A DNA stretch of 64,000 nucleotides from the IMG/VR virus record IMGVR_UViG_3300043436_001797, positions 1 to 64,000 of that record. One strand, 5' to 3'. The position numbers were made by a program, and so were the translations under genes. Under the pieces are notes generated by a model. It was not told the origin of the DNA and ran no database searches. It saw only the letters and a list, made by a program, of their open reading frames with translations. This document shows positions 2,881 to 51,800 of the stretch, piece by piece. This DNA comes from a virus. Every line of letters starts with the position of its first letter. The first letter of the stretch is position 1.

Positions 2881-3168
2881 ATTTAGCTATTTATTGCTGT
2901 TAACTTATTTACATATCCCATCCGTACTCAGTATATACTGCTCACCCTTTGGAAATGAGTTGTGGTACGTTAAATATGAGGGTTATCTGAACTCCCACAA
3001 ACGCCAGGAACTTACTGGATATTTACCCGGTTGAAGAAAGGGTAACAATACTACTGTCTTGTATCTACACTGGACAGTCCCGCGCCAGTAGCTTACTGGA
3101 TAGGTATTACAATTTATATCCCGGAGTATATACTCAAAGCCGGCAACACCACACCAAAGCGGTTAATA

Positions 3169-5706: not shown

Positions 5707-6150
5707 ACAATTGGAATGTGTTGTTTAATACCGCAACACTCACGGTAATGTGTTGTTTAATGCACCTATATAGTACCCTACATAGTGCACACCACACACA
5801 TATATACTATGTTGTTTAGTATCGGTAGTAAGTTCTATCTACTACTTACGATACACCTTTCACCATAGCGCAGCTCATGTGTTGTTTAGTTTGCACCACC
5901 CATGCACACACTTTCCTGCAGGATTTTTTTGTTGTTTCGGTCCTACGTTTCATTGTAACCTGTTGGTTTCGTGGGGGGTGGGTACCACTCCGACGGCGGT
6001 GGGGGGATCGTTTCAATACCATCCCTAACAACGCAACGCATATACAAAACCCATATCCCCACTCTGCAACGCATATATAAAATGAGGTACCCGGGGGAAT
6101 AACCCAGGGGATTATTTGTATATTTGTAGTATAATAAGTATATTTATAGT
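5707..6150. promoter_or_regulatory. Divergent control region with repeats and hairpins; possible genome terminus or origin
   Basis: Strand switch. Five TGTTGTTT copies with interspersed inverted repeats, GCAACGCATATA twice, G-runs, and TATATTTG at 6119. Confidence 0.55.
6119..6126 (+). promoter_or_regulatory. Bacteroidota housekeeping-sigma -7 element TAnnTTTG (late arm)
   Basis: TATATTTG upstream of the first late gene. The same motif is intergenic at 13842, 22819, 25793 and 46613, and TATCTTTG at 61038. Confidence 0.55.
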
Positions 6151-14170: not shown

Positions 14171-14188
14171 TTGCTAGCTTAAACCAAC

Positions 14189-14560
14189 ATGGCAATCGTT
14201 AATCAAGTACAGAAAAGAATACGCATGGAGATCTGGGACATTACTAAGTTCCAGATCGCTGTGCATTGTCAGTTAAAAGACATACCTGTTTCAACTCTTG
14301 ATCTAAATTGCTTAACCCTGCTAGCGTTATCTGGTGAACGTGAACTTACAGATTTTTGTCAGACTGCTGCTCAGAAAGAAATTTTTGGCAGCAGTCAATC
14401 TGTAAGAAACGCACTTACCAAAGCTGAAAAAAGAAGCCTTATTATAAAACAAGGTAAGGGTAAAAAGAAGATTAGGATAAACCCAGAGTTGAAAATACAA
14501 ACTGAAGGGAATATTCTACTAGATTATAAAATAGTCAGAGTTGAATCCCAAAAAGTTTAA
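14189..14560 (+). CDS. Winged-helix DNA-binding protein (RepL-like position in crAss-like phages)
   Basis: SSQSVRNALTKAEKRSLIIK..IRINP fits a wHTH pattern; gene order. Confidence 0.55.
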   Translation: MAIVNQVQKRIRMEIWDITKFQIAVHCQLKDIPVSTLDLNCLTLLALSGERELTDFCQTAAQKEIFGSSQSVRNALTKAEKRSLIIKQGKGKKKIRINPELKIQTEGNILLDYKIVRVESQKV

Positions 14561-22764: not shown

Positions 22765-22869
22765 CTATATTCTCCGTTTTATTTACATAAAGCAAAAAAT
22801 TTTTAAAGTTTAGGTGTATATATTTGTCTATATTATTAGTGTGCATTTTAATTAAACCAACAAAAAAAC

Positions 22870-24093
22870 ATGAGTAAAACAGAAGATAATACCGTTGTTG
22901 AGCAGGTCGATATCGACTTGGACAACATACTTGGTATGCCCGGAGCTGAAAGCATAATGCTTCCTGAAGAAAAGAAACCTAATGTATTTTCTGCAGGTAA
23001 ACCCGATCTTTCTTTTATGGAAAAATCAGAAGACAAAGATGATTCTGGTGAAAGTAAAGAAGAGGGTGCTGAAAAGTTTACAGATGTACTCAAAGATTTA
23101 GATCCTGAAGATGCTTCTTTAGGAAAGCAATTTGACGAAGAGGATACCAAAAAAGCTCCTGGACGTGCAAAAATTGCTAAAGATGGTACAGTAGAGTTAG
23201 TAAAGAAGTTAATTGACGCGGGTCAATTAATTCCTTTTGATGACGAAAAGTCTATCGAAGACTACTCTATAAATGATTTTGAAGAACTGCTTCAAGCAAA
23301 TTTTGAAGAAAGAGAAAACAAAATTCGTCAAAGTACGCCAGCAGAGTTTTTTGAATCTCTTCCTGAAGAGCTCCAGGTAGCTGCTAAATATGTAGCTGAC
23401 GGAGGTCAAGATCTAAAAGGATTGTTCAGAGTTCTTTCTCATGTAGAAGAAACATTTGAGCTGAATCCTGCGGAACCTAATCACCAAGAAAGAATTGTAA
23501 GAGAGTATCTTACAGCTACAAACTTTGGTACCGCTGAAGAAATCGAAGAAGAAATCGACAGTTGGAAAGATAGAGATGAACTAGAAGCTAAAGCTAATAA
23601 GTTCAAACCAAAGTTGGATGCTATGCAAGCTAAAGTGGTTCAACAAAAGCTTGCACAACAAGAGCAAATGAAAAGACAACAAGCTGCACAAGCACAAGCT
23701 TATATGCAGAATGTATATAATACAATTGCTCCTGGTGAACTTAATGGTTTGAAACTAGATCGCAAAACACAAGAAATGTTATATGGCGGTTTGGTTCAAC
23801 CATCTTATCCTAGTATTAGTGGCAGACCTACTAATTTGCTGGGACACCTTCTAGAGAAATATCAATATGTAGAACCAAATCATGCTCTTATTGCAGAAGC
23901 TCTTTGGTTACTAGCTGATCCTCAGTCTTATAAAACTAAGATTATGGATCAAGCTCAGAAAGTGCAGGTTGAAAAAACAGCACGTATGCTAAAGACAGAA
24001 GAAGCAAGAAGAAGTACAGGTTCACCTATTGTAGAGAAAGAAGAAGTGAAGCAAAGAACGATTAAACGTAATAATAACTTTTTTAAACGCTAA
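22870..24093 (+). CDS. Acidic scaffold-like protein
   Basis: Acidic helical protein between portal and capsid genes. Confidence 0.55.
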   Translation: MSKTEDNTVVEQVDIDLDNILGMPGAESIMLPEEKKPNVFSAGKPDLSFMEKSEDKDDSGESKEEGAEKFTDVLKDLDPEDASLGKQFDEEDTKKAPGRAKIAKDGTVELVKKLIDAGQLIPFDDEKSIEDYSINDFEELLQANFEERENKIRQSTPAEFFESLPEELQVAAKYVADGGQDLKGLFRVLSHVEETFELNPAEPNHQERIVREYLTATNFGTAEEIEEEIDSWKDRDELEAKANKFKPKLDAMQAKVVQQKLAQQEQMKRQQAAQAQAYMQNVYNTIAPGELNGLKLDRKTQEMLYGGLVQPSYPSISGRPTNLLGHLLEKYQYVEPNHALIAEALWLLADPQSYKTKIMDQAQKVQVEKTARMLKTEEARRSTGSPIVEKEEVKQRTIKRNNNFFKR

Positions 24094-24122: not shown

Positions 24123-25751
24123 ATGGCAACTCCAGTTTTAAATAATGGTATATTTCTACGAGATACCAACTACGCAGCTAGTTCACACGTAGATTCATAC
24201 CACTTAGTTAACATGTTAAAGAATGCAGAACCAATGGACATGGGTCCAGTGGATCTGTGGGCAATGGCACAAAAAGTCGAAATGCCTCTTTACCAAATGT
24301 CTAGCTTTGGTGGTAAGAATGTGATCATGGTTGACAACGCAAGAGGTGAGTACAAGTGGCAGACTCCAGTTGTACAAGATCTTCCTTACGTTATTGAAGA
24401 TATTGAACCAAGCAATACTGTTAAAGGTATTGATGGCAGTACCTTTAAAATTAAACTTTCACGTCGTGAGTTCGGTCATGGTGATATTATCACTTATGAC
24501 AAGTACAACGGTGTGGAAATGTACATTGTTCCTGATCAGGATATTCTTCCAATGGGTGATGGTTTTATTTACACAGTACAACTTGTAAATAACGACAACA
24601 CTAAGTTCTTGGAAAACAAGTATCTTGCATCTGGTACTAAAGTATTCCGCAAAGGTTCTGCTCGTGGTGAGTACGGAGAGCGTTTCTCTGATATTCAAAT
24701 CCAGTCAGGTTTCCGCGAATTCTACAACTTTGTAGGTGGTGCTGAAGCTCACGTACACTACTCTATTTCATCTCGCGCTGATCTTATGATCAAAGGTGGT
24801 ATGAATGCAGATGGTACTGTACCTGTAACTGAAATCTGGAGAAACTTCGACCAGAACATGGATCCTTCTATCACTAACCTTGAGAACATGGTTAGCCGTA
24901 TGGGTAAGGAGTATGTTAAAAAGGCGATGTCAAACGGTAACCTTTCTCGTACTTTCTTGACTACAATGGAAGCTGCTCACTTGACTAAAGTAGCAAGCGA
25001 CATTGAAACCTACTTGATGTGGGGACAAGGTGGTAGAGTTCGTCAAGACGGTCCAGATGATGTAAGATTGTCTGTGGGTCTTTGGAGACAGCTTGACAAC
25101 TCATTCAAGCGTGTATACAACAAGTCAGGTTTCAACCTTGATTTGTTCCGCTCTGAAATCTACAACTTCTATGCTGGTAAGGTTGAATTTAAGGGTCCAG
25201 ATCCTAAGCGTCAACTGATCGTACAAACCGGTATGGGTGGTATGAGAATGGTTAACGAAGCTATCAAGAAAGAGGCAGTTAACTCAGGTTTGGTTATCCA
25301 AGCTGCTGATAACGCTGGTATCGGTGCTATCACTGGTAAGGGTATGGATCTCGGATTTGGTTTTGCATACACTTCTTACGTTATCCCATTCTTGGCAAAC
25401 GTGAAGTTTGTATTGAACCCTGCTTTCGATAACATCCACACTAATGACATTGAAAACCCAATCATTGACGGTTTCCCATTGTCTTCTTACAACTTCATCA
25501 TCTTCGATATCACTGACAACACTAACGACAATATCTTCTTGTTGAAGTTGTCTTGGGATAACCAATTGAAGTGGTGGTACCAAAACGGTACAATGGACTA
25601 CATGGGTCGTACCCAAGGATTCCAGTCTTCTGGACAGTTCAATGGATACCGTGTATATATGACACAAACAATGCCTGCAATTTGGGTAAAAGACCCAACC
25701 AAGGTGTTGAAGATCGTTATGAGAAACCCTGTAACCGGCGGATCATTCTAA
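24123..25751 (+). CDS. Major capsid protein
   Basis: 542 aa in canonical position with strongly biased codons (AAC/TTC/GGT), followed by a terminator. Confidence 0.8.
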   Translation: MATPVLNNGIFLRDTNYAASSHVDSYHLVNMLKNAEPMDMGPVDLWAMAQKVEMPLYQMSSFGGKNVIMVDNARGEYKWQTPVVQDLPYVIEDIEPSNTVKGIDGSTFKIKLSRREFGHGDIITYDKYNGVEMYIVPDQDILPMGDGFIYTVQLVNNDNTKFLENKYLASGTKVFRKGSARGEYGERFSDIQIQSGFREFYNFVGGAEAHVHYSISSRADLMIKGGMNADGTVPVTEIWRNFDQNMDPSITNLENMVSRMGKEYVKKAMSNGNLSRTFLTTMEAAHLTKVASDIETYLMWGQGGRVRQDGPDDVRLSVGLWRQLDNSFKRVYNKSGFNLDLFRSEIYNFYAGKVEFKGPDPKRQLIVQTGMGGMRMVNEAIKKEAVNSGLVIQAADNAGIGAITGKGMDLGFGFAYTSYVIPFLANVKFVLNPAFDNIHTNDIENPIIDGFPLSSYNFIIFDITDNTNDNIFLLKLSWDNQLKWWYQNGTMDYMGRTQGFQSSGQFNGYRVYMTQTMPAIWVKDPTKVLKIVMRNPVTGGSF

Positions 25752-25764
25752 TGATTTTAACTAT

Positions 25765-25794
25765 AAAAGGGGGAGGGAAACCTCCCCTCTTTTA
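25765..25794 (+). terminator. Intrinsic terminator after the capsid gene
   Basis: AAAAGGGGGAGG-GAAA-CCTCCCCTCTTTT. Confidence 0.8.
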
Positions 25795-26061: not shown

Positions 26062-27081
26062 ATGAGTGATACTTTTACAATTGTGCAAACTCCAGGTATT
26101 AAATCTGGACCTATTGCAATCCGTCCATTCTTTAATCAAAATGTCTCTAACATGGGACTTGAAAAGTATGGATTATCTTTATTTGAGGGAGTTTTTCATG
26201 AAGAACAACTTGCATGTATTGAGCAGAACGGTGTGAAGCGATACATTACAGGTCTGAATGAATTTGCTCCTGAAGTTAAAATGATTAGAGACGAAGATCA
26301 GAAGAAAGCTAAAATTAATGAGATTCGTGCTGCTGTATCTGAACTAGAAAAAGAGATGGCAGCAAATCCGATTGAAGTGTCTGATCCACATTTCTGGAGC
26401 AAAGTAAAATTATTACGCCCTGAGAATGATGATTTCTGGACCAAGATTACATTGAGGTGTGGAAACACCCCAATGTTTCTTGATCCGGTAAAAGATCCTT
26501 TTGATAGAATTAGACTTTATGCTATTGAAGCAGGTGGGTTTAGCATCGTCGCAAAGAGCTATGAGGAGGCTAAAAACAAACCTACTCCAGTTAAATTTTA
26601 TTTAGATAAATACGAAGAAACCGCTGGAACTAAAACTGAAGTTAAAAAACTTCGTAACAAAGCTCTTGCTGAGCTTCAGAAGTTGTTTGATAAGAATCCA
26701 GTTAAGATGATGTACGTAGCAAAGATTGTAGACATTAATAGTGTTCAGTATAAGAAGTCTACACCAAATGATGTTATCTACGATAATATGGATATTTATA
26801 TCAATGGTGAAGGTTCTGAGACGAGTCCTACAAGAGCGGCTCAAACTTTCTTAGATACCGTAAACCTTGATATGGAAACACTAAAACTAAAGTCAGTTAT
26901 TAGAGATGCTAACTACTTAAGGTATATTGTTACCAAACCGGATGGATTTATTTACCATGCTTCGTCATCAACAATGCTTGGTAGAAATCCATCAGATGTT
27001 TTAGAATATCTGAAGAATCCTTTGAATGAAGAGATCCTGAAAGATCTATTAAAGTCAACCGAAAAATACTGGAATCAATAA
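26062..27081 (+). CDS. Protein downstream of the capsid gene (339 aa)
   Basis: Long ORF in the conserved post-capsid position; function unknown. Confidence 0.7.
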   Translation: MSDTFTIVQTPGIKSGPIAIRPFFNQNVSNMGLEKYGLSLFEGVFHEEQLACIEQNGVKRYITGLNEFAPEVKMIRDEDQKKAKINEIRAAVSELEKEMAANPIEVSDPHFWSKVKLLRPENDDFWTKITLRCGNTPMFLDPVKDPFDRIRLYAIEAGGFSIVAKSYEEAKNKPTPVKFYLDKYEETAGTKTEVKKLRNKALAELQKLFDKNPVKMMYVAKIVDINSVQYKKSTPNDVIYDNMDIYINGEGSETSPTRAAQTFLDTVNLDMETLKLKSVIRDANYLRYIVTKPDGFIYHASSSTMLGRNPSDVLEYLKNPLNEEILKDLLKSTEKYWNQ

Positions 27082-31786: not shown

Positions 31787-31823
31787 AAAAAGGGAGAGGG
31801 AGTTATACTCTCCTCTCCTTTTT
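31787..31823 (+). terminator. Intrinsic terminator
   Basis: AAAAAGGGAGAGGGAG-TTATA-CTCTCCTCTCCTTTTT. Confidence 0.75.
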
Positions 31824-32397: not shown

Positions 32398-32412
32398 TTA
32401 AACCAATATATT

Positions 32413-32556
32413 ATGTCACAGTGTCCAAATTGCGGAGCAGCTATGAGCTGCGGATGTCAAAAGAAAGTACTTTCTAATGGTAAAATAGGATGTACTAAAT
32501 GTGTTAATCAAACTTCTACAGCAGAGGCAAAAGAAACTGAAACTAAGAAAGAATAA
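32413..32556 (+). CDS. 47-aa Cys-rich protein (not in the ORF track)
   Basis: MSQCPNCGAAMSCGCQ..GCTKC; TAAACCAA leader and TAATG coupling. Confidence 0.7.
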   Translation: MSQCPNCGAAMSCGCQKKVLSNGKIGCTKCVNQTSTAEAKETETKKE

Positions 32557-38827: not shown

Positions 38828-41800
38828 ATGCCAATTTGTAATAATCAATATCCTACTGGAGGAACACCTGCTCCAAATCCTAGTGTTGGTACTTCAGGAC
38901 CTAACGTATCTATTACATCCGCAAATGTAGAAATAATTTATCCTACTATTATAATAAATAATAGTACTACTGGTACGCAAAAACAATGGTTTGCTGCTAA
39001 TCTAGTTGGTGCAGAAGTTTTTACTCTTAATTTTTTACCAAGTGATATAAACTGGTTTGGAACACTAAGAGCAGCTAGCCCTGCAGACAATGGTATTGGT
39101 AATACCGAAGCTGCTGTTCTTAATAACACTGCATCTGCTAAATTATGTGAGTCAGGTTTTTTGTATAAACCTGATTGTATTCAAAATATTAACAATTGGT
39201 TAGCTAGTACAGCAGGGGTGGCAGCAGTGGGTGCAGGTTGGAGGGTTGCTACACAAGCAGATTTTGAGCATTTGCTTGAGGCATTAGATCCGTTATCTGA
39301 TGCAAATTCTACATTTAAACTTAGAAATACATCTACATCGGGTAATGCCACTATTAATACACAATGGCTTTCTACTTCTACTGCACCACCAGCAGGTGTA
39401 ACTTTAAACTACTCAGGTTTTAATGCTTTTGCTGCTGGTGCAAGAGTAATAACAACAGCAACGCCTCAAAGCGGAGGTTCGATTAATTTTAATGGAAGAT
39501 TTGTAGCCTGGTGGTTAGGTCCATCAACACCTGGTGGAACAGATAATCAGTATAATGTAACTGGTTTTGCTAAAGCTTTTTATAAATCGGTATCTATCTG
39601 GAATAGAGGAGATCAACCACAAGGTGCAACAAATCCAGCTAACTCATTAAAATTTAATATAGCAGGTAGTAGTACTAACCCAGGTTTAACCTCTGGGACT
39701 TATATTTCTAATGACCCTAATGTAGGTAACTCAATACGTTTAGTAAGAGATTGGGTTAATCCGGATTGTCCTGATCTAACAACATCAGATGCTTTAAATC
39801 CCACTCTTGTAGCTGCAGGAGCGTATGAGCCTGTTACATTTGACCAGACAGTATATCCATCTATTTGGATAGGTGCTCAAAAATGGGTAGCATCAAACCT
39901 TGTAGAAACTCTTGCACCAGGTTTAACTCTTGTTGATGATGGTACCTGGAAAACATTAGGCGATAATTATGTACCAGCATATACTTATTGTAATATAAAT
40001 ACTGAGTTGTTAGATTGCAAACAAGGGTATTTATTTAATTATTCCGCAGGTGTTGCAATAAACAATTATTTAGTAGGCCAAGGTATTAATCAGAAATATA
40101 GAGTTCCTTCTAATGATGACTTTAATGAATTAGTAGATTATTTAGGAGGTGCATCTGTAGCAGGAGGTAAACTAAAATCAAATACCCCTACTCCGACAAC
40201 TTATTGGGATGCACCTAATACTGGAGCAGATAACAGTTCTGGATTTTCAGCAATTCATAATGGGGTAGCATCAGTTAATAATACTCCTCCAATAGAGCTG
40301 GAGTTTACAAATTGTGGACCAATTAATAGAGTTGGCGCTACTTATAGAAGTCGTGATGAAAATAGTACATTTCCAGGAAGTTCTGCACTCATAGAGTTGA
40401 CTAACTCTAGCGATAATTCTTCAATTTATGAGGTCCAGAACTATTTAGGTCATGCAATAAGATTAGTTATACCTAGTATACCAGTTACAATAGTATTTGC
40501 TGGACCGGGTACTGGTTCGGCTACAGTAACAGGTGTAGATAGCACTATAACTGATACAGGTACATCTGGATTTGTAATAAGACTTAGAAATGGGGAAGAC
40601 TTAACTGTTATTGCTACACCAGATTCTCCATATGTAACAGGCTCTATTAATGTAACAGATGGGGTTCCTTCAGGGGTTCCTCAAACAACCCCTATTGCCG
40701 GTGGACTACAGGTTAATGGTTTATCAGAAGCAATAACTGTAACTATTACATTTACCAATCCTCCTGCACCAGCATCATGCAATCCTTGCACTTTTAGTCA
40801 ATTAAATTCGGGATTGACATATGGTAGTGTCACAGTAAATAGTGTATGCTACCCAACTTTACAAATTGGTTCTCTTGAGGTTACTACATACAACCTTACG
40901 GTAAGAGATCTTAGTACTTTTCTTTTTCCGGGCGTACCTTTTATTACTAATGCTGCAGGATGGGTAAGTGCGGGTTCTAGTAGTTCTGCTGCCTGTACTT
41001 TTACAAACTTTGCAAATAATTCACTGTCTAATAGTACAAATGAAAATACTTGTGCTACAGGACTACTTTTTAATCACCATGCTATAGCTCTTATTAATGC
41101 TTATCTAAGCGCTAATAATCCGGGATGGCGTGTACTTACAGAGTGTGATGCTAAGCATATAAAAAATAGGGTTTCAATTGATCTTTCAGTAGGATGTCCT
41201 GCAAATGGTTTAGGTGTAGGAGCTATTAACGTAGGTGGAAATGGTTTAGCAGGTAATGCATCAGATGAATGTCTTCAGAATGATGATTTCAACCCTTCTG
41301 GTTTAGGTGCTACTTTAATGTCTGCTGGTGGCACTACTGATAATGCTGCTGCTAATAATGATTCCGGCTATACTTTAGTTAAAACAGGATATATAAATGA
41401 CACCGGTAGTTTTAGTGGTCCTGTTAATTCAAATATTTGGACTAGTACTTCAGCAGATAAACAATACGCTAATGGTAGTTCTACTGTTTATGATGGTTAT
41501 GCTTGGAGAGGTTTTGCAGCAGATTTAGGGAGTGGTGGAGAAACTTATATAGATCATATTCCAAATTTACCATCTTGGGGTTTTGCTCTTAGACTGTGCC
41601 AAACTATAGATACCCCCTACGATTTTACTGGTACTCATAATGTTAGTTTAGATACAGGTGTTTTGGTAGCTGGCGTACCTATATCAGGCGCTACAAGTAC
41701 AATTGATTATAACAATAGTTACGGAACTTGGAGAATCAATAAGTGTAGAGATATAGTTAATAACGTTACTGCTACAGCTGGTATAAACGATGTTGCTCCA

Positions 41801-44800
41801 GGTTGGGATAAACTTAATGGTACAACAGCTAATCCTGATACAGGTCAAATTGTTGTTAGATTTTCTGGGATACCTGCAGCACCAGGAACATATACTTGGT
41901 ATCTTCCTATAGGTTGTGATATAATTCCGATCACAAGGGAAATAATTCCTGATCCTGGTTCAATAACAGATTTAATTTGTGGTGCTGCTGCATCTAGTCT
42001 TACTGGTGTTTTATTTGAAGGTGACGATGCTTCAGGTATAACCTTTACTGTAAGTTATACTGGAGGCAATGGTGGGGATTATGCTGCACAAAGTATTTTA
42101 TCTACTGGAGTAGCTGGTCTTACGGCAACTCTTGCTGCAGGAAGCTTTGCTAGTGGTTCGGGAACTTTAACGTACACACTTTCAGGTACTCCTGCTGATG
42201 GCGGTACAGCATCTTTTGCTTTAAGTTTTCCTGGTCCAAATAGTACTACTGTATCCTGCACTGTTATTTTAGATGTTGAAGAAGTAATCCTAATTACATT
42301 TTTAGGATGTAACAGCGCTACATATACTCCTAATACTCCTCCTTTTTATGTCAGTACACCACTAAATGAAAACATTTCTATAGCGTATGCTGCGTCTAAT
42401 AGTGGAGAATATGCAGGAGATACATTTGCATCAACAGGTCTTACAGGATTAACCCTTACTCTAAATCCAACTACTGTAACTAGTTCTGGTTCATTTACAG
42501 GAACAATAACAGGTATAGCGGGTCAAACAGGTACAGCAATTTTTACTATATGTATAGGTGGGTATAACGGACAAGGTCAGTTCTGTTGCACTTTATCAGT
42601 ACCTATTGTAGAAATTCCTTCAGGAGTAGAGCAATTAGATTGTGCAAATGCTGTATTTACCGGAACTGTTTCATTTCCTGGAAGTTACGCTGCCGGAAAT
42701 AATATTACTATTACTATACCTTACATTGGTGGAAATGGTGGTGGATATCCTTATACAGCATTTTCATCCACAGGTATAACCGGTCTTACAATGTCAGCAC
42801 CTGCAGGGAACTTTGCAGGTAGTCAAACTACTCCACAAAATGGTACTATTCTTTTTACAGTAATAGGTACTCCGAGTGGAATAGGTAATGCTGTATTTGA
42901 TATTGAAATTGGAGGTCAAACTTGTCAGATAGAACTACCTGTAGTAGAATTACCCGGGGATGCCAATCTAAATTGCGGAGCTGCTACTACAAGTTCTCAA
43001 GTACTTTCCGGACAATCTGTTAATGGTATAACATTGTCCATACCATATACAGGAGGTAATGGAGGAACATATGACTCTCAAATCATACAATCTACACCAG
43101 CAGGAGTTACTGCATCATTAGCTCCTGGAACTCTTGCTGTAGGTTCTGGTGTTTTAGTACTATCTCTTACTGGTACAATGCCTGCTGGATTTATACCGAT
43201 TACATTTCAGTTTGCATTTCCAGTAGGTTCACCTGCTTGTACTATTACACTAACTCCTCCGATTGAAGATGGTACAGCAGACTTAGACTGTAACAGTTTA
43301 AGTGTTGTTGGTACAATTACGTATCCTGATCCAATACCTGTAAACAACCCCATTATACTTTATATAAACTATACTAACAGTAATGGTGGATCATACCCTG
43401 CAGCAACATTTACTTCAGCTTTAGGTGGAGTACTTGGTTTAACTGCAACTCTTGAAGCTGGTCAGTTTGCATTAGGATTTGGACAATTACAATTAACAGT
43501 AACTGGTACTCCGCAAAGTTCCGGTACAGCATATTTTGATATTACAATAGGAGGAACAACTTGTACTTTTGATATACCTGTTGAACCACCTATCGGTGAT
43601 ATAGATCAGTTAAATTGTAATCCTAGTTCCATTGCTGTTACCGGAACTTTGGTAAATGGACAAGTTGCTTCAGGAGTAACATTTACAGTTCCTTATGCAG
43701 GATCTAACGGGGGCACTTATCCTGCAAATACTGCTAACTCTTTAAGTATAGTTACAGGACTTACTGCAACTTTAGCTTCAGGTATATTTAACGAACCTAA
43801 TGGAACAGTTACTTACACGGTAACAGGAACACCACTGGGTTCAGGTCCTGCTACATTTCCTATTACTGTTGCAAACCAGTCATGTACAATATTACTTACA
43901 GTAGATCCTATACCAGGGACAGCAGATTTAGACTGTGCTAATGCTACATTTAGTGCTACTCCTGTACAAGGTTTTTCTACTTCTGTAACAGGAAATATTC
44001 CTTATACCAATGGTAACGGAGGATATTATGATACTTATACCGATACTGTAGATGGATTAACATTAACTATTAACGATGGGTATTTTAATAATGGTTCAGG
44101 ATCTGTTCCATTTACTATTCAAGGTATACCCACTGTATCAGGAACAATCACATTTACTAATATTCAGGTAGGTGACCAAACCTGTAATTTAACCATTACT
44201 GTTTCAGAACCGCCTCCTATTATTGACGATCTACTCTGTGATCAAGCGGTTATAACCGGATCATTAGTAATAAATGAAGTTGCTTCTGGTGTAACTATTA
44301 CAATCCCTTACGAGGGAAGCAATGGGCAACCTTATCCTGAAGATAGTAGTAACTCTACTGGAATTACAGGATTAACTGCTACTACCCCTGCTGGTGTATT
44401 AACTGATCCTACAGGTGAATTAATATACACAGTTACAGGTACTCCGACTACTAGCGGTGTAGCAACGTTTACTATAACCATAGGCACACAGACCTGTGTT
44501 ATTAGTATACCTGTAAGTCCTCCTAACTTCTTTGGTCCTGAAGAGCCCTCTCCTTGTGAAGAAGTTACTTACACGGATCCTGGTTGTGAAGTATTAACTG
44601 ATACCTGTACAATTCTTTTCAATGGTACTGAAGTAGTATACACTACAATAAGTACTACTGATCCTTGTCAGGTATCTTTTCAGGTTCCTTGCGATGCTCC
44701 ACCTAATGAGGTTGCTATTGTAACTTTCTTAGATTGTGAGGATAATATAATTACAACTGAAGAATTACCTATTGGTGATAAGTTACCATCTTATCTTTCA

Positions 44801-46537
44801 CAAACTGCAGGATGTCCTGGTGATGAAGTTACTTTATTAGACACAGGTTGCACATTTGCAACTAGCGTCACAAACATTCAAGTTTGCTACCCTGGATCAA
44901 CAGGTTGTATTTCTATAGGTCCCGGTACACTTTTAAACTCAAGTCTTCCTTTACCTTGTTCTATTGCATTCACAATACCTGTACCTTCACCAGCACCGTT
45001 TTATCCGGTTGATGTTCAAATTGTATTTGAAGGTTCGTCAGGAGTTTTAGAACAATTTGACTTTACAGTTGAAAATTGCGCTGACACAGAAAACAGTTTT
45101 GAACCTATTGGTTGTGCACTTCCTGGTGACGAAGTTACTTTTACTAATCCTAACTGCAACTTAGTAAGTCCAGATTTTAGTGAGCTGCTTGTAGGAGGAA
45201 TTAGTGCTGCAATAGTAAGTGTTAATAATACTCCTCCATGTTCTGTAACGTTCTTGATTCCTGATGAGACAAGTTCAGGTTTACAGGAAATACAGTTTAT
45301 AGACGATCTTGGTAACTTATTAGGTACTGAAGAATACTCTGTTGCCGCAGAAGGTGTTGGTTCTAATTACACTGTTACGTTTACTCCTCAAATTGACACT
45401 TGTCATAGAATATACTTCCGTACAACTCAAGAAGAGTATTGTTACTATCAAGCAGATGGACCTTTTGAAGTCGGTGTACCTGTAACAGTTACTATTGATT
45501 TGCAGGATTATGCTGAGTGTTTGGTTACTGTTCCACCGACTAGTTGTGATGATAATATAATAGTTACAGGTTACATACAACCATGCTGTACTAATGAAGA
45601 TGCTCTAGATAATAGAGTAGAAATGAACTGTGTACAGTATGCTGCAACAGATTGTGGACTATACTCTGTAGTATGTAACTCATCTAATTGCGGTACGTTT
45701 ACTAAATCAAACTGTTTTGCATCAGGTTGTACTGGAATAAACGATCTCACTGAATATGCATTTAGAGGTAATGCAGGGATACCTAGCAATACAGTATATG
45801 TATGTTCTGAAGGAAATGGTGTTCAAAACACTACTAATTCCACGTACACTATAACTAAGTTGTCCTCTGTTGTAGCTAAAGCTTATGGACTAAATATACT
45901 ACAAGCTTATCCTTTTCAACCTTCTACTATTTACTGGACAAATAATGCAAGTGTTGAATGGAATCCTGCCGGAACATGTTCTTTTGTCGGTGATCATGTA
46001 TATGTTCCAGAAAATACTACTACAGGTACTGTCTTAAGCGCAGTTATTTTAACAGTAGGGACTACATACGAGTTTACTTTTAGTATGTTTTCTAACTTAG
46101 CTAACATTATTAGTTTTACTTCCGGGCTAGGTAACACCGTTTCTGTATCAAGTCCTGGTGGATCTTATCCTCCTGTTGGAACAACTTATCAAATCACAGC
46201 AGGATCTACAGGAAGACTTTCGATTAGTATCCCTTCTGTAGGAAAAGGTACTTGTTTTCAGCTAACTGGATTAAGAGTAGTTCAAACAGGAATAAGAGCA
46301 ACATGCTGCACATGTTTCGGTGCTGAGGTTATCTTAGATTTACCTGAAGATGGACCTACTTCTATAGAAGTATACTATACTCAGTGTACTGATGATGGTC
46401 CCCAGATTGCAACAACTACACTAACAAATTCTGTAAATGTAATAAACTGCTGTACTTATGGTAGTGTGTTTCCTGTAAATAGGTTTGATGTAGATTATAT
46501 AACATCACTTGTCTACTTGATTAATTCAGGTTGTTGA
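38828..46537 (+). CDS. Giant adhesin/fibre (2569 aa): 3 Fib_succ_major-like domains, 8 Ig-like repeats, IPT-like repeats
   Basis: W.A.NL..G.L(Y/F)..GWRV..(D)F..L..SGF..G.SIRL three times; LxC..Y.G.NGG.Y..GTP..C eight times; (P)G/CxEVT three times. Confidence 0.75.
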   Translation: MPICNNQYPTGGTPAPNPSVGTSGPNVSITSANVEIIYPTIIINNSTTGTQKQWFAANLVGAEVFTLNFLPSDINWFGTLRAASPADNGIGNTEAAVLNNTASAKLCESGFLYKPDCIQNINNWLASTAGVAAVGAGWRVATQADFEHLLEALDPLSDANSTFKLRNTSTSGNATINTQWLSTSTAPPAGVTLNYSGFNAFAAGARVITTATPQSGGSINFNGRFVAWWLGPSTPGGTDNQYNVTGFAKAFYKSVSIWNRGDQPQGATNPANSLKFNIAGSSTNPGLTSGTYISNDPNVGNSIRLVRDWVNPDCPDLTTSDALNPTLVAAGAYEPVTFDQTVYPSIWIGAQKWVASNLVETLAPGLTLVDDGTWKTLGDNYVPAYTYCNINTELLDCKQGYLFNYSAGVAINNYLVGQGINQKYRVPSNDDFNELVDYLGGASVAGGKLKSNTPTPTTYWDAPNTGADNSSGFSAIHNGVASVNNTPPIELEFTNCGPINRVGATYRSRDENSTFPGSSALIELTNSSDNSSIYEVQNYLGHAIRLVIPSIPVTIVFAGPGTGSATVTGVDSTITDTGTSGFVIRLRNGEDLTVIATPDSPYVTGSINVTDGVPSGVPQTTPIAGGLQVNGLSEAITVTITFTNPPAPASCNPCTFSQLNSGLTYGSVTVNSVCYPTLQIGSLEVTTYNLTVRDLSTFLFPGVPFITNAAGWVSAGSSSSAACTFTNFANNSLSNSTNENTCATGLLFNHHAIALINAYLSANNPGWRVLTECDAKHIKNRVSIDLSVGCPANGLGVGAINVGGNGLAGNASDECLQNDDFNPSGLGATLMSAGGTTDNAAANNDSGYTLVKTGYINDTGSFSGPVNSNIWTSTSADKQYANGSSTVYDGYAWRGFAADLGSGGETYIDHIPNLPSWGFALRLCQTIDTPYDFTGTHNVSLDTGVLVAGVPISGATSTIDYNNSYGTWRINKCRDIVNNVTATAGINDVAPGWDKLNGTTANPDTGQIVVRFSGIPAAPGTYTWYLPIGCDIIPITREIIPDPGSITDLICGAAASSLTGVLFEGDDASGITFTVSYTGGNGGDYAAQSILSTGVAGLTATLAAGSFASGSGTLTYTLSGTPADGGTASFALSFPGPNSTTVSCTVILDVEEVILITFLGCNSATYTPNTPPFYVSTPLNENISIAYAASNSGEYAGDTFASTGLTGLTLTLNPTTVTSSGSFTGTITGIAGQTGTAIFTICIGGYNGQGQFCCTLSVPIVEIPSGVEQLDCANAVFTGTVSFPGSYAAGNNITITIPYIGGNGGGYPYTAFSSTGITGLTMSAPAGNFAGSQTTPQNGTILFTVIGTPSGIGNAVFDIEIGGQTCQIELPVVELPGDANLNCGAATTSSQVLSGQSVNGITLSIPYTGGNGGTYDSQIIQSTPAGVTASLAPGTLAVGSGVLVLSLTGTMPAGFIPITFQFAFPVGSPACTITLTPPIEDGTADLDCNSLSVVGTITYPDPIPVNNPIILYINYTNSNGGSYPAATFTSALGGVLGLTATLEAGQFALGFGQLQLTVTGTPQSSGTAYFDITIGGTTCTFDIPVEPPIGDIDQLNCNPSSIAVTGTLVNGQVASGVTFTVPYAGSNGGTYPANTANSLSIVTGLTATLASGIFNEPNGTVTYTVTGTPLGSGPATFPITVANQSCTILLTVDPIPGTADLDCANATFSATPVQGFSTSVTGNIPYTNGNGGYYDTYTDTVDGLTLTINDGYFNNGSGSVPFTIQGIPTVSGTITFTNIQVGDQTCNLTITVSEPPPIIDDLLCDQAVITGSLVINEVASGVTITIPYEGSNGQPYPEDSSNSTGITGLTATTPAGVLTDPTGELIYTVTGTPTTSGVATFTITIGTQTCVISIPVSPPNFFGPEEPSPCEEVTYTDPGCEVLTDTCTILFNGTEVVYTTISTTDPCQVSFQVPCDAPPNEVAIVTFLDCEDNIITTEELPIGDKLPSYLSQTAGCPGDEVTLLDTGCTFATSVTNIQVCYPGSTGCISIGPGTLLNSSLPLPCSIAFTIPVPSPAPFYPVDVQIVFEGSSGVLEQFDFTVENCADTENSFEPIGCALPGDEVTFTNPNCNLVSPDFSELLVGGISAAIVSVNNTPPCSVTFLIPDETSSGLQEIQFIDDLGNLLGTEEYSVAAEGVGSNYTVTFTPQIDTCHRIYFRTTQEEYCYYQADGPFEVGVPVTVTIDLQDYAECLVTVPPTSCDDNIIVTGYIQPCCTNEDALDNRVEMNCVQYAATDCGLYSVVCNSSNCGTFTKSNCFASGCTGINDLTEYAFRGNAGIPSNTVYVCSEGNGVQNTTNSTYTITKLSSVVAKAYGLNILQAYPFQPSTIYWTNNASVEWNPAGTCSFVGDHVYVPENTTTGTVLSAVILTVGTTYEFTFSMFSNLANIISFTSGLGNTVSVSSPGGSYPPVGTTYQITAGSTGRLSISIPSVGKGTCFQLTGLRVVQTGIRATCCTCFGAEVILDLPEDGPTSIEVYYTQCTDDGPQIATTTLTNSVNVINCCTYGSVFPVNRFDVDYITSLVYLINSGC

Positions 46538-46545
46538 TAATACTG

Positions 46546-46610
46546 AGTCTAGCTTTTGTTGGTTTAAGCAAGACTGCTACAAAGAGCCTTGGGTAAAACC
46601 GAGGCTTTTT
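46546..46610 (+). ncRNA. Candidate 3'-UTR small RNA: seed-loop hairpin plus terminator
   Basis: Stem AGTCT-A-GCTT / AAGC-A-AGACT with loop TTGTTGGTTT, followed by the terminator hairpin. Complementary to late-gene leaders. Confidence 0.4.
46581..46610 (+). terminator. Intrinsic terminator
   Basis: AGCCTTGG-GTAAAA-CCGAGGCT-TTTT. Confidence 0.8.
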
Positions 46611-46655
46611 GGTATATTTGTTTTTATAATCGACTAAAATTTACTAAATTATATT

Positions 46656-47249
46656 ATGATGAGGAACTTTAGAAAACCGGATCTTGCTGCTCCCCGATTC
46701 AGACCAAAAGCTTTCAATGTTCTAAATAAAGAACTCTGGAAAGAATTTAAGGAGAAGTACCCGAAGTATAAAGATCTTACTTACATGGACTTCAAGAAGA
46801 TTATAAAGCTAAGTAACCAGAAGTTCTGGGAAAAGGTAATCTCTTATAGAGATGGTGTTGAGTTACCTGAGAGTCTAGGTTTTATTTTTATAGGTACGTG
46901 TACATCTCAGAACCCTAAAAGAAAAAACATAAACTATGGTAAATCAATCAAGTACGGGTTTGAGGTAAGCAACAACAATCTTATTTCTGACGGAAAGCTA
47001 GCTAAGATTTTTTATACAAACTACGCGGTTAAGTATAAAGTTAGAGATAGAGAGATCTGGACGTTTACTCCTTGTAGATCTTTTAAGAGACAGGTTGCTA
47101 AGACATATCCAGAAAACTGGGAAAAGTATATTGAGGTTCCGGATAATCTTAAGATATCCAGATTGTATAATGAACTGATTTCTAAAGACGTAGAAAAGAA
47201 AGAAGTCTCATCAGCAATTATAAACTATAACGAATTTGATTTAAGCTAA
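46656..47249 (+). CDS. IHF/HU-like basic protein
   Basis: GVELPESLGFIFI..FTPCRSFKR, HU-like arms; gene order before the tail genes. Confidence 0.6.
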   Translation: MMRNFRKPDLAAPRFRPKAFNVLNKELWKEFKEKYPKYKDLTYMDFKKIIKLSNQKFWEKVISYRDGVELPESLGFIFIGTCTSQNPKRKNINYGKSIKYGFEVSNNNLISDGKLAKIFYTNYAVKYKVRDREIWTFTPCRSFKRQVAKTYPENWEKYIEVPDNLKISRLYNELISKDVEKKEVSSAIINYNEFDLS

Positions 47250-47923
47250 TGACTACAATAGGAGAGAGCATATCAAGGGTTAGAAACTTGGTAAAAGCAG
47301 CAAAGCAGGATGCTTTTATGACTGATAGATTTATCTACAGTCTTATTGTAAAGTATGCTAAGTTGTTGATTAAGAGACAAGACGCTCTTAATGTAAGACT
47401 TAAGTTCGCAAGTCTTTTTAGAACTCTCCCTTGTGTAGAGTTAATTGAGACCGACAGAGTTGAAGCTTGTTGCGGAAGCTTACCTGACACTTGTAAGGTA
47501 ATGCGCACTAAGGAAAAGATTCCAGTACCTTTTGAGGGAGCTTATGGTGCTTTTATTAGAACGGTCTCATCTATAGACGGATCAGTTGAGGTTTACAGAA
47601 CTCAACCCGCTCAATTTACATCTATGACTAAGACTACTGCTTTTAAGTACAACAAGCAGAAGTACTACTGGTATATGAATGGTTATTTATATCTACCGAA
47701 CATTGAGTGGGAAAGCATTTTGCTAGAAGGGATATTTGAACAAGACATTGCAATATTTACATGTGCTGCTGACGGTATTTGTAAAATACGCCAGAATGAT
47801 ATCTTAGGTATTCCTGATGACTTGTTTGCTGAGATTGAGCAACAGGTTATGTCGCAGTTGTTGGGTACTGCACAACTTCCAACGGATATTAATATTTCTG
47901 ATAAACAAAACGTTCTAAGATAA
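47249..47923 (+). CDS. Tail ring protein
   Basis: TDRFI..R..LPCVEL..YLY..EGIFE pattern; gene order. Confidence 0.6.
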   Translation: MTTIGESISRVRNLVKAAKQDAFMTDRFIYSLIVKYAKLLIKRQDALNVRLKFASLFRTLPCVELIETDRVEACCGSLPDTCKVMRTKEKIPVPFEGAYGAFIRTVSSIDGSVEVYRTQPAQFTSMTKTTAFKYNKQKYYWYMNGYLYLPNIEWESILLEGIFEQDIAIFTCAADGICKIRQNDILGIPDDLFAEIEQQVMSQLLGTAQLPTDINISDKQNVLR

Positions 47924-48837
47924 TGGATTACAACTACACCCTGAAATACAGGACCTTTGATTCTCTTCTTGAGGATGTTAAGATGGATCTTAGAAACTTG
48001 TCAGCTGATACAAGTATTGAACCCGGACAACTTATCAAAGTAGCGCGTAAGTGTAACTACGATTTGGGTCTTCGTATTCAAAGAAGTAGAGAGACTGTTC
48101 TTGAGATAGAAAAAGGTAAAGCTCGTCTACCTGAAGATTTTCAGGTAATGAACTTTGCTCTTATGTGCGGTAACTATGTTGTAGTAGAAGTTCCCCCACA
48201 GGGAACTAACGTTCAAGAAGTCACTCCAGGATATAGACCTTGGATAGATGCTAACCTTTGTTCTGATGTAAATGGAACGTGTCCGGAAACAACTTGTATG
48301 ACTGAATGCAATCAGTCGTATAAGCTTATCCAGATGGTAAACTCAGTACGTAGAGAATATACTACTTTCTCTCCTATCACTTTTAGAAGCTCTCAGTTTA
48401 TAGATGTTGATTGTCCAAACACCTGTTCACCTCGTTGGCAGAACAGAGATGAAGCGTACATCAAAGATGGTTGGGTGTTTACAAACTTTACTGACGGACA
48501 TGTGTACATTAACTATCAAGCAGATATGGTTGATGATGAAGGTAATCTTATAGTACCAGATCATCCCATGTTGAATGAATACTATGAATATTCTTTGAAG
48601 AAGAGAATACTAGAAAACCTTGTAATGGATAATGTAAACGTTACAGGTCAATATCAACTTGTATCTGCTGAACATAGAGTTGCTAGAAACGCAGCGTTTA
48701 GTATTGTGAATACTCCTAACTTCTCTGAGATGATGAAGGTGTGGGCGATGAACAGAAAAGCAATGTACTCTAAGTACTACAATATGTTTAAGAGCTACTA
48801 CTACCCTCTTAATTTACGAGTTAATAACGCTATTTAA
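47923..48837 (+). CDS. Tail tubular/adaptor ring protein
   Basis: LEIEKGKARLPEDF..TNF.DG.VYINY..DDEG..VPD; immediately before the muzzle gene. Confidence 0.65.
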   Translation: MDYNYTLKYRTFDSLLEDVKMDLRNLSADTSIEPGQLIKVARKCNYDLGLRIQRSRETVLEIEKGKARLPEDFQVMNFALMCGNYVVVEVPPQGTNVQEVTPGYRPWIDANLCSDVNGTCPETTCMTECNQSYKLIQMVNSVRREYTTFSPITFRSSQFIDVDCPNTCSPRWQNRDEAYIKDGWVFTNFTDGHVYINYQADMVDDEGNLIVPDHPMLNEYYEYSLKKRILENLVMDNVNVTGQYQLVSAEHRVARNAAFSIVNTPNFSEMMKVWAMNRKAMYSKYYNMFKSYYYPLNLRVNNAI

Positions 48838-48839
48838 TT

Positions 48840-51800
48840 ATGGCAAAGAAACAAGGTAATACTCCAGAATCTGGAATCAGTTCTAACTCAGGATCTTTTA
48901 CCAAAGGTCTTGTAAGAGACTTTGATGAAAACTTTGATCCCGAAAGTTCATGGCCATACGCACGTAACGCTTCAAACAATTCTAAAGAAGGTGATGTTGG
49001 TGTCTTAGGTAATGAACCATCAAACTCTGCATGCGGAGTTGCTCCCTACACAGTTATTGGTAGAATATTTTTATTCAATGCTTACTGGGCAATATTTTCT
49101 ACCGATGATAGCAACTCTGAAATAGGTGTGTATGATGAGTCCCTCTGTCAATATAGAACTGTAGTTAACCAAAAATGTCTAAACTTTAGGAAACTAAATC
49201 TAGTAACAGGGGTAGCTAAAGAAAACTTTGATTGTCAGTGGGCGGTTTATTTTGCTGATGGTAGAAATCCAGACAGATATATAAACATAGGTAACCCCGC
49301 ACTGTGGCCAGATACACCATACCTTGGTAATAACTATTATCAAAATAATGTACTGTGGCCAGGTGTACAGTGGATACAAGACTGTCAAATTATAAACAGT
49401 TGTACAATATGTGAAAATACCAACAGTTTAGATTGTGAAGAAATCAGAATCAATAAACTTGTTAATACCCCTTGTGTTAAAGTTAGCGCTAAAGAAGGTG
49501 GCGGTAACCTAGCTAATGGTTCTTATGTTGCTTTTATAGCATACTTAGAAAATGGTCAGAAGTATGGAGACTATACATCACCCTCTAACGTACAACCTAT
49601 ATTTGATCACGACAATCTTGGTGGTTCAATTACTGTAGAAGTATCTAATCTTGAAAATAAGTCTTTTACTGAGTTTGAACTAGTTATTGCTGCGACAGTA
49701 AATGGGCAAACTGTAGCAAGAAGAATAGGTCAATATGCTTGTTCCGATGGACCTGTATTGGTATATCTTGATAGTATAAACGACTCGTTACCTACGGTAC
49801 CTCTTGAGTTACTTCCTATAAGATCACCATTGTATGAAACATCAGATTCTATTTTTGAAACTGGAAGCTACCTTCTTAAAATAGGTCCTCGTACAACTTT
49901 TGATTTTAACTATCAACCACTGGCAAATCAAATTGAAGCTAAGTGGGCAATTGTAAGATATCCGTCAGATTATTACAAGAGTGTAGGTAGCAACACAGGT
50001 TATATGCGTGATGAGGTATATTCATTTTTTATAAGATGGATTTACGCAACAGGAGAAAAATCTAAGTCATATCATATTCCTGGAAAGATTGGAGATAGTA
50101 AGGATACTACACAATCTATAGGTATATACTCAGCAGAACTAGAATACGGTTTTGAAAAAGAAAATACAGCTACTATAACTAGTACGACTACATATTCTTT
50201 ATCAGATGGTGGTGTTGTAATAGCTGAAGGTACAATGGGTTACTGGCAATCTTCTGAAAAGTATCCAGATAGAAATCCTGAGGTTTGGAATTCTAGTTAT
50301 GATCCTAGAATATCAGGTACAAGTCAAACTACATGGGATCTTTGTAACCAACCTATCCGACATCATAAGATGCCGGAAGATGTTATTTCTAATGATTTAA
50401 AATATACAAGAGCTGTTATTTTAGATTCTGCTGGTAATATTGTTCCATCACCTAAGTACACTGGAGCTACTCACATTCAGATAGTTGGTGTAAAGTTTTC
50501 AAACATTAAACCTCCTGTTTATATAGACGATGATGGAAATACTAAGGTTATTCCTGGTATTGTTGGTTATGAGATTCTTCGTGGATCACGAACAGGAAAC
50601 AAGTCCATTATAGCAAAGGGTATTATAAACAATATGCGGAGCTATACTGATATTGATGATACAGAAGGTCTTTATGCAAACTATCCGTTTAATCCTGTAA
50701 AGGATATAAGTGGAACAATTGATCCTACACTATCAATTACTCCGGTTAATGGTAATGGTAGTAATTACACCCCTGTAACAGAATCACATGTAAAGAAAAA
50801 CTTTTTAACCTTTCATTCTCCGGACACTAGTTTCTATAAACCTTTCTTAGCTGTAAAAGAATTAAAACTTTATACAGAGTTAGGAAATCCTGGTAATGCA
50901 AAAGGAACATTTGAACCAGTACCCGGACATCCCAAGGAAAAACTTTTAAGCAATGTTTCATCTACAACAGCAATGATACTTGGTATAGCTGAAGCAATCT
51001 TTGCAATGAAAGGTGAAGAAGGATGGGAAGGAGAAGAATCAAGATCACTTAATATAGGTCTTGGTGGTACGATGGTTATGCCAACCCCAGGAGGAGTCTT
51101 TGGTGCACCTAGTTTGATGTATCCAACTTTCGGTGTACCTGGTGGTAATGTGTATGAAGGACTTAAACAAGCACAGGTGCTTGGACAAACAGGTCTCAGT
51201 GCATCAGCTCAAGGATTGACAGGTGGTTTAATGTCATTAGGTGGAGCGGGTATGGTGACAGGTAATAATGCTCAGTTATTTTACATGGGCGATAAACTTG
51301 CATCAAATGGGTACGCACTTGCAGGGGGATATATGGGACCTACAAGAAGAAGAATGCACAAAGAAGGTGTTATGTCAGGTCTTCCACTTATAGCAAATAT
51401 TTTTGCGGTTGTTCCTACATTGTATACACTAGCTACAAACGCAGCATCTAAAACAATTGACCTAATATATGCTTTTGTAAAAGCTCGTAGTTATGTCTAT
51501 AGATTTATTTCCCACGGGTTTTTACATAAAGACAATTTACCGCCAGCATCCAGAAGGCATTATATAAATGATGTCGCATATTTAAATGAAGGTTTTAATA
51601 TGTTTGGTGGGTATAAGATCAATAATATTAACAGATTTAAAACTACAGTATTAACTACCGCAAATGATGTGGCGTTACCTAACATTGTAGATAATACAGG
51701 TGTAAGCATTAGCAGAAATGTAAGTTCTAATGTTACAGCTGCTACAATGGATCCATCGCTTACAGGGAAACCGGCTAGTGCTCCTGTAGCAGAACTTATA

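Follow-up and report, generated by a model that had tools for sequence, protein, structure and literature searches.

A conserved hairpin in the 3' untranslated region of a phage fibre-like gene with a loop complementary to the start regions of genes flanking the capsid gene

The 3' untranslated region (UTR) of a giant fibre-like gene in a Crassvirales-type phage carries a hairpin, followed by an intrinsic terminator, whose single-stranded loop is complementary to the translation start regions of the two genes that flank the capsid gene. The phage is represented by positions 1 to 64,000 of IMG/VR virus record IMGVR_UViG_3300043436_001797, the first 64 kb of an 81.8-kb record, and this whole stretch of 64,000 nucleotides (nt) is called the window below. 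The structure of the element, its strand, its conservation, a regulon of complementary leaders and the co-variation of loop and leaders are observed. We consider it probable, at about 0.6, that the 3' end of the fibre mRNA, or a fragment of it, represses the two flanking genes, taken as assembly genes, by pairing with their leaders.

A hairpin and a terminator follow the fibre-like gene

The element comprises the following features, with the gene to which it belongs; lengths of proteins are given in amino acids (aa) and open reading frames are abbreviated as ORFs.

38828-46537, + strand: giant fibre-like gene of 2569 aa; an ORF with a Pfam Fib_succ_major domain (1.7e-20), whose 3' UTR bears the element
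46546-46575, + strand: anti-leader hairpin with a stem of 5 bp, a 1x1 mismatch and 4 bp, supported by the fold and by stem covariation
46556-46565, + strand: hairpin loop UUGUUGGUUU, 10 nt, the proposed seed
46580-46611, + strand: intrinsic terminator common to the fibre mRNA, supported by the fold, with arms CAAAGAGCCUUGG / CCGAGGCUUUUUG and a U run

The hairpin begins 9 nt after the stop codon of the fibre ORF (46535-46537) and pairs AGUCU.GCUU with AAGC.AGACU on the + strand. Its loop is unpaired in both the minimum-energy and the centroid folds, and it grows to 14 nt (46554-46567) if two U-A pairs open. The terminator, a G+C-rich stem and then a U run on the coding strand, has the orientation of the genes, and 9 covarying pairs support it in an RNAalifold alignment of 38 sequences. 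The hairpin and following terminator described by the first-pass annotation are thus present, and the 78-nt stretch that contains them folds at -30.5 kcal/mol (z = -5.0; none of 200 shuffles folds as well), compared with only -19.7 kcal/mol for the opposite strand. Like a small RNA (sRNA) derived from a 3' UTR, the element lies 3' of a stop codon and ends at the parental intrinsic terminator, and the same arrangement of stop codon, hairpin and terminator is repeated in relatives and in phi4:1, a cultured Cellulophaga phage. Kissing-type antisense RNAs follow the YUNR rule for a U-turn loop motif, and by inspection both UUUG and UUGG in the loop fit it, as expected of a loop seed of the kissing type.

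The first-pass annotation had also stated that no ATG lies nearby on the minus strand, and none follows the motif there within the 23 nt inspected. A scan of positions 46000-47000 against Rfam 15 gave a best score of 19.1 bits, against a gathering score of 60, with all E-values above 3; no Rfam family, C4 included, rose above about 19 bits.

The loop is complementary to start regions in the window

Four sites in the window match the loop, and all four were correctly located in the first-pass annotation.

22852-22865, + strand: leader site of the 407-aa gene (22870-24093, in the portal-capsid interval), 14 of 14 nt complementary to the loop
26049-26061, + strand: site in the leader of the 339-aa gene (26062-27081, 3' of the capsid gene), where 13 nt complement the loop and abut the ATG at 26062
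14177-14189, + strand: site in the leader of the 123-aa gene (14189-14560), where 13 nt complement the loop and include the A of the ATG
32398-32406, + strand: weak 9-nt site TTAAACCAA, 7 nt 5' of the ATG of a 47-codon Cys-rich ORF (32413-32556)

Positions 46554-46567 are the exact reverse complement of 22852-22865, with the ATG at 22870, and by direct reading 46557-46569 is the reverse complement of 14177-14189. When each of the 54 ORFs of the record was tested for pairing of its start region with the loop, the 407-aa, 339-aa and 123-aa genes came out as the top three, with duplex energies of -15.5, -15.1 and -12.6 kcal/mol, respectively, whereas the next start region gave -8.4 kcal/mol and the mean of the 54 was -5.9 kcal/mol. 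A count of the motif AAACCAACA against a shuffled null, as the first-pass annotation had proposed, gave 5 copies in the window compared with 0.94 expected, a number that none of 100 shuffles reaches. Each of the three + strand copies directly precedes an ATG.

The length of the 14-nt match is not significant by itself, since exact inverted 14-mer pairs number 32 in the window and 24.6 (standard deviation 7.3) in 30 shuffles; its position and conservation are significant. It is solely through conservation and co-variation, presented below, that chance can be rejected as the whole explanation.

The ORF at 32413-32556, which falls below the 60-aa cut-off of the ORF list, encodes zinc-ribbon-like CxxC pairs and overlaps the ATG of the following gene by TAATG. 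In relatives (e.g. G002, G003, G004, G005 and G008), small Cys-rich ORFs at this position bear the full motif.

The leader motif marks a small set of genes

Nineteen related records were fetched whole, which together with the window gave 20 genomes and 1,855 ORFs. Across these ORFs AACCAAC was seen 71 times at positions -25 to -1, compared with 3.7 expected, and its enrichment ratio was the highest among the 30 top-ranked 7-mers listed; general A-rich words were enriched about 9- to 13-fold. Of the 414 occurrences of AACCAAC, 91 closely precede the ATG of a frame of at least 40 codons, which is the top share among all 35 permutations of the word, and the gap between motif and ATG is 2-6 nt in 49 of these 91. 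The motif is therefore concentrated at start codons and not equally frequent away from them.

Among the orthologues of individual genes, ACCAAC was found in 16 of 19 leaders of the 339-aa gene and in 15 of 19 leaders of the 407-aa gene. None of the 19 leaders examined for each of capsid, portal, p234 and p186 contained it, and p450 leaders also scored 0 of 19, with several p450 start calls being unreliable. The motif occurs in 5 of 17 orthologue leaders of the 123-aa gene (G000, G004, G009, G010 and G030), and the small Cys-rich ORF carries it in several genomes. Judged by these leaders, the core regulon is the pair of genes flanking the capsid gene, plus in some genomes a 123-aa and a ~50-aa gene; the predicted set is neither late genes in general nor simply highly expressed genes. 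The first-pass description of the sites as late-gene translation starts was too broad, given that capsid, portal and three other head-module genes lack the motif.

The 339-aa orthologue leaders of many genomes carry the motif in 2-3 tandem copies, 10-16 nt apart (e.g. G004:40130-40147, G005:37087-37105 and G010:44294-44325), and the window has a single copy.

Many late-gene ATGs are preceded, at 5-30 nt, by a conserved promoter-like block, TTTTGTA(A/T)ATTATAATGTA(GTC), a distance that implies very short leaders. The block was seen in loci L015-L082 around 2950-3000 and upstream of 407-aa orthologues. Many leaders in relatives are short and follow this conserved block. The ATTATAATGTA block resembles the host-polymerase middle and late promoters of phi14:2 reported in 10.1101/2020.03.07.982082.

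The hairpin is conserved in position, loop and pairing

Relatives of the element were sought in IMG/VR through the protein encoded downstream of the hairpin.

46656-47249, + strand: 197-aa gene, downstream of the hairpin, the syntenic anchor for finding relatives

This gave 98 confirmed relatives, of which 80 loci were kept. The two-part hairpin-terminator element was present at nearly every locus, 0.1-1.5 kb upstream of the 197-aa homologue, and its position was constant, 3' of the fibre gene and 5' of the 197-aa homologue, with a terminator 3' of the hairpin in every relative listed. Conservation of the loop, on which the first-pass annotation had made its proposal depend, is complete in its core: GTTGGT shows no change in any of the 38 distinct versions, and the Ts on either side of it are conserved to at least 90%. 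The stems have no common sequence, with 28 distinct 5-nt 5' arms among the 38 sequences, and yet they pair, since the 5-nt arms of one sequence match each other at 4.84 of 5 positions, compared with 2.33 of 5 for arms from other sequences.

A covariance model was built from six seed copies of the same geometry and retrieved 25 copies at E <=0.06, 18 of them distinct. In the resulting alignment 7 of 7 stem pairs showed changes on both sides, and 95.9% of cells were paired, compared with 71.0% in shuffles (0 of 500 reach the observed value) and 30-55% in slid controls. This alignment is fitted to the model and so favours structure, a bias of which the arm-swap test is free. When 15 whole records (1.42 Mb) were searched, the model gave 11 hairpin hits, at most one per genome and 10 of them with E <=0.69, and the best extra hit was a leader read backwards. 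The model is narrow: it missed long-loop versions or scored them poorly, it matched the copy in the window through the loop only (13.3 bits), and it left the hairpins of G005, G007, G011 and G012 unretrieved at E <=5, although these were visible in locus inspection. RNAalifold on a plain MAFFT alignment recovered the terminator only, since loop lengths differ, and a second MAFFT set was out of register.

In 28 of the 38 versions the hairpin is more stable on the + strand than on the opposite one (mean -8.87 compared with -6.94 kcal/mol). Conservation starts at the foot of the hairpin, and the 3' ends of the fibre genes differ among close relatives right up to it. A conserved private promoter is therefore absent, and the element is to be assigned to the fibre mRNA's 3' UTR; the lack of a conserved upstream promoter favours either processing or a role within the mRNA itself.

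In one subclade (L029, L044, L056, L067 and similar loci, at about 1590-1660) an internal loop and a further, outer helix enlarge the hairpin. This outer helix also varies in sequence, and the RNA there is larger than that of the window.

Loop and leaders change together in three lineages

For the search for loop variants, 80 further loci were gathered with a profile of the 224-aa neighbour; inspection of 25 loci that failed the filter gave no new loop variant. In G041 the loop reads UUUAUUGGUUUU, with a G-to-A change, and the leaders of the 407-aa and 339-aa genes and of a 47-aa gene all read AACCAAU, with the corresponding C-to-U change. No start region of this genome reads AACCAAC, and the three AACCAAU leaders are the best 3 of its 29 start regions for the loop. 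A G in the loop accepts C or U opposite, and an A requires U, so the G041 pattern is the one expected from a loop A that requires U in the leaders. In G042 the loop ends in GGUUA, and four of five regulon leaders read UAACCAAC in place of AAACCAAC, that is, they begin with UAACC and not AAACC.

The third lineage is phi4:1, whose portal identity with the window is about 27% and which has the same gene order: the tail fibre gene, a 113-nt gap, and homologues of the 224-aa (8e-16), 304-aa and giant proteins. The 113-nt gap contains a hairpin with the loop UUUUUGGUUUUU and a terminator, and AAAACCAAAAA leaders occur at the equivalent positions. Among 179 start regions of phi4:1 compared with its loop, that of the gene after the capsid gene (AAAACCAAAAAC) ranked first, that of the gene before it (AAAAACCAUAAAA) ranked sixth, and the capsid gene itself ranked 44. 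The hairpin was first met by searching for the complement of the leaders; a start from synteny yields the same single hairpin, and the rank test is therefore independent.

Duplex energies within and between genomes pointed in the same direction. The pairing of each loop with the 407-aa leader of its own genome averaged -11.96, compared with -11.21 across genomes (permutation p = 0.007); for the 339-aa leader the p value was 0.096, and three control genes were without effect. By these sequence comparisons, loop and leaders co-vary in three lineages (G041, G042 and phi4:1), which is the loop-leader covariation across related phages that the first-pass annotation had suggested looking for. A conserved seed that is complementary to target start regions and changes together with them is thus found.

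Several observations weigh against pairing of this kind as the function of the element. The relatives are kin, so that counts of sequences are not independent events, and the core is invariant on both sides, which leaves co-variation testable only through rare variants and the edges of the core. The energy gain of own- over cross-genome pairs is small, 0.4-0.75 kcal/mol. The loop is better conserved than the leaders: in G020, G024 and G029 the loop is kept and the leaders read AACCAAA, which creates an A-G clash, and in G012 the loop is kept and the leaders are weak, so something besides these leaders may constrain the loop. In phi14:2, a true Crassvirales phage, no ACCAAC-type tag was found in the leaders of the equivalent genes g092 and g090, and by inspection 0 of 10 hairpin-plus-terminator candidates mirror them. 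The leaders of the Leptolyngbya phage Lbo-JY46 (PP438436.1) rank only 6 and 19 of 150 for a look-alike hairpin, whose minimum-energy fold leaves the loop unexposed. BLASTP of the 339-aa and 407-aa proteins against their positional equivalents in phi4:1 found no similarity. Finally, that the pairing represses and does not activate is the most likely sign of the effect, and it is taken from analogy alone.

The look-alike of Lbo-JY46, a phage with a cyanobacterial host, is an intergenic candidate at about 91600-91660 on the minus strand, an AU-only hairpin that contains UUUGUUGGUUG and has a strong terminator behind it. Homologues of the 224-aa and 197-aa genes are found 1.7-2.4 kb downstream of it. 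As neither fold nor leaders support it, this syntenic look-alike was not accepted as the same element.

Proposed mechanism and alternatives

In the mechanism that we favour, the hairpin and terminator would form the 3' end of the tail-fibre mRNA, and the element would either stay on that mRNA or accumulate as a fragment of about 65-75 nt that the terminator protects. The single-stranded loop, (U)UUGUUGGUUU, would pair with the (A)AACCAACA(A) tag located 0-8 nt before the AUG of the two conserved capsid-flanking genes, here those for the 407-aa and 339-aa proteins, and of the 123-aa gene. The resulting duplex of 10-14 bp, spanning about -18 to +1 depending on the gene, would hide the A-rich stretch that guides start choice by ribosomes in hosts that do without Shine-Dalgarno pairing, and translation of head-assembly proteins would be lowered once the tail-fibre operon is strongly transcribed. 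Two further terminators bear on this arrangement.

25769-25793, + strand: strong terminator 3' of the capsid gene
31798-31814, + strand: terminator at the boundary between the head module and the tail-fibre module

Both separate the targets from the fibre operon, and any interaction must therefore be intermolecular. Accumulation of the RNA, its action in trans and repression as the effect are inferred and not observed. In PMC7366714, start-site choice in Bacteroidota is reported to rest on A at -3, -6 and -11 to -15; the same text describes A-rich, Shine-Dalgarno-free starts and sRNA pairing at start regions in Bacteroides, where the trans-acting sRNA GibS represses by pairing around start codons. 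Middle and late phi14:2 genes are read by the host polymerase from -35/-10-like promoters, according to 10.1101/2020.03.07.982082. The idea of a 3'-UTR-derived sRNA that coordinates a regulon, put forward in the first-pass annotation, is partly supported by the conserved + strand structure, the conserved loop and the complementary leaders on a small set of genes.

The direction of control might be reversed, abundant head-gene leaders kissing the loop and altering the efficiency of the downstream terminator or the stability of the fibre mRNA, which would couple fibre and cargo genes to head-gene expression. Sequence alone cannot tell regulator from target; moreover, the spacing between hairpin and terminator is always a few nt (4-10 nt), and tandem leader copies would be good titrators. 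We nevertheless regard this arrangement as unlikely: a promoter-like block stands 3' of the terminator in relatives, which means that the downstream genes need no read-through, and the position of the leader motif, at a fixed 0-8 nt from the ATG, fits a target of translational control better than a diffusible signal.

It is also improbable that the complementarity is functionless and that a protein or the transcription machinery reads the hairpin as a 3'-end element, be it boxB/nut-like, a processing or stability element, or an aid to termination. Such an element would account for the constant position beside the terminator and for a loop more conserved than the leaders (G012, G020, G024, G029 and Lbo-JY46), and the 14-nt inverted match alone is at chance level. 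It leaves unexplained, however, the joint change of loop and leaders in G041, G042 and phi4:1, as well as the association of the complement, the top A/C 7-mer, with start codons and its confinement to two genes. The boxB loop is a 5-nt GNRA-like loop, and the loop here has 10-14 nt.

Pairing between RNA and leader could instead activate translation, by protecting short leaders from nucleases or by guiding ribosomes in place of a Shine-Dalgarno sequence. A motif 2-6 nt before the AUG has Shine-Dalgarno-like spacing, and the hosts of related cultured phages are Bacteroidota, which do without Shine-Dalgarno use according to PMC7366714. Against this, a duplex over -1 to -14 usually blocks 30S binding, and the capsid gene, the most highly expressed gene in phi14:2 as given in 10.1101/2020.03.07.982082, lacks the motif; activation is thus quite unlikely. 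We give similarly little credence to the more specific notion of an RNA that stands in for the anti-Shine-Dalgarno sequence on behalf of the phage, pairing with the AACCAAC tag 2-6 nt before the AUG in hosts whose ribosomes make no use of Shine-Dalgarno pairing, and thereby passing chosen phage messages to the ribosome or licensing them. If this were true, the element would exemplify a broader class of "anti-leader" RNAs, so far undescribed, in Bacteroidota phages.

The view of AAACCAACA/TGTTGGTTT as a double-stranded DNA site for a phage regulator, read in either orientation, has the least to commend it: one copy does lie in the opposite orientation, and the tandem copies before the 339-aa gene are 10-16 bp apart, near one helical turn in several genomes, but the stems differ in sequence and yet pair, which indicates selection for single-strand pairing, the + strand folds better and a site in a hairpin loop would be single-stranded, the distance of the motif is fixed to the ATG, even between cistrons, and not to promoters, and a loop G-to-A change met by a leader C-to-U change reflects complementarity and not site identity. 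Imitation of a stretch of 16S rRNA by the loop was considered and dropped, since it depends on knowing the host.

Relation to known RNAs and significance

Repression by the fibre mRNA 3' end would make the element kin of the 3'-UTR-derived sRNAs, with a loop seed like that of classic phage and plasmid antisense RNAs; it differs in being viral, in its distant head-assembly targets and in the Shine-Dalgarno-free starts that it would address. OppZ and CarZ of Vibrio cholerae, as described in PMC7398697, likewise come from the 3' end of an operon, use the parental terminator and direct a short conserved seed at start regions; translation inhibition is a further likeness, being here the expected effect only. 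In the same text they pair with their own operon, need RNase E and Hfq, and belong to a proteobacterium, whereas the present element is viral, has its seed in a hairpin loop and has targets in other transcription units separated by terminators. GibS of Bacteroides thetaiotaomicron resembles it in pairing with the start-codon region, in acting on A-rich leaders without Shine-Dalgarno sequences and in being AU-rich; it differs, according to PMC7366714, by an unstructured 5' seed of 30-50 nt, its own promoter, an intergenic location, a cellular origin and metabolic targets.

A literature search found no paper describing this hairpin element, and a term search of the text of a 2025 review on phage sRNAs showed "crAss", "Bacteroid" and "capsid" to be absent from it.

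In the phage and plasmid antisense RNAs P1/P7 c4, P22 sar and CopA/RNAI, a loop on a stable stem recognises a start region. The resemblance to the element lies in the conserved single-stranded loop and in a phage-encoded RNA directed at phage genes. They are encoded by temperate phages or plasmids, where they act on immunity or replication genes, for the most part in cis or nearby, whereas in the present case a phage of lytic type would adjust the expression of head-assembly genes at a distance of about 20 kb.

Very little has been learned so far about post-transcriptional control in crAss-related phages, or in phages of Bacteroidota as a whole. Should the proposed repression be true, it would provide a clear case of a lytic phage setting the ratio of its head-assembly proteins with its own RNA, and a natural example of base pairing that addresses start regions without Shine-Dalgarno sequences. 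One small element is kept across 38 distinct versions from 80 loci and is matched with a two-gene regulon beside the capsid gene. The idea is open to direct test, because phi4:1, a cultured phage with a host that can be grown, Cellulophaga baltica, has a variant of the element.

Putative target proteins and gene setting

The 407-aa protein (22870-24093) is acidic in its N-terminal half and basic at its C-terminus, and it contains a helical-looking stretch rich in Q, A and K as well as an LLEKYQ motif. Its designation as a scaffold in the first-pass annotation is a guess from the acidic, helical-looking and Q/A/K-rich sequence, and it stays unproven, with no match in Pfam, PHROGs or the PDB. 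The same PHROGs and Pfam searches gave no match for the 339-aa protein, a profile search of the PDB with both proteins returned only weak armadillo-repeat noise (E >=0.02), and in the ESM Atlas both fall into unnamed viral clusters. In phi4:1 (NC_021788) and phi14:2 (NC_021806) the genes just before and just after the capsid gene, gp065/gp063 and g092/g090, respectively, are the only genes in the block without a virion mass-spectrometry note. These annotations hint that the genes flanking the capsid gene encode non-virion assembly proteins such as a scaffold.

The window encodes both a Crassvirus-type major capsid protein and a portal protein, which places the phage in the Crassvirales type. 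The capsid gene (24123-25751) matches Pfam Crass_capsid (5.6e-31) and the portal gene (20002-22764) a portal PHROG (1.3e-95). Cultured relatives are distant, with portal identities of at most 32%, and a megablast of positions 44000-49000 against the phage collection gave no match. Several giant ORFs are present in the window; the phi4:1 gene at the position equivalent to 38828-46537 is annotated as a tail fiber protein.

The sequence (T)AAACAACA(CA)T, which lacks one C of the leader motif, occurs five times on the minus strand at positions 5716-5940. The AAACAACA copies alternate with short hairpins in a divergent region that separates the leftward from the rightward gene blocks, and they may be early promoters or an origin.

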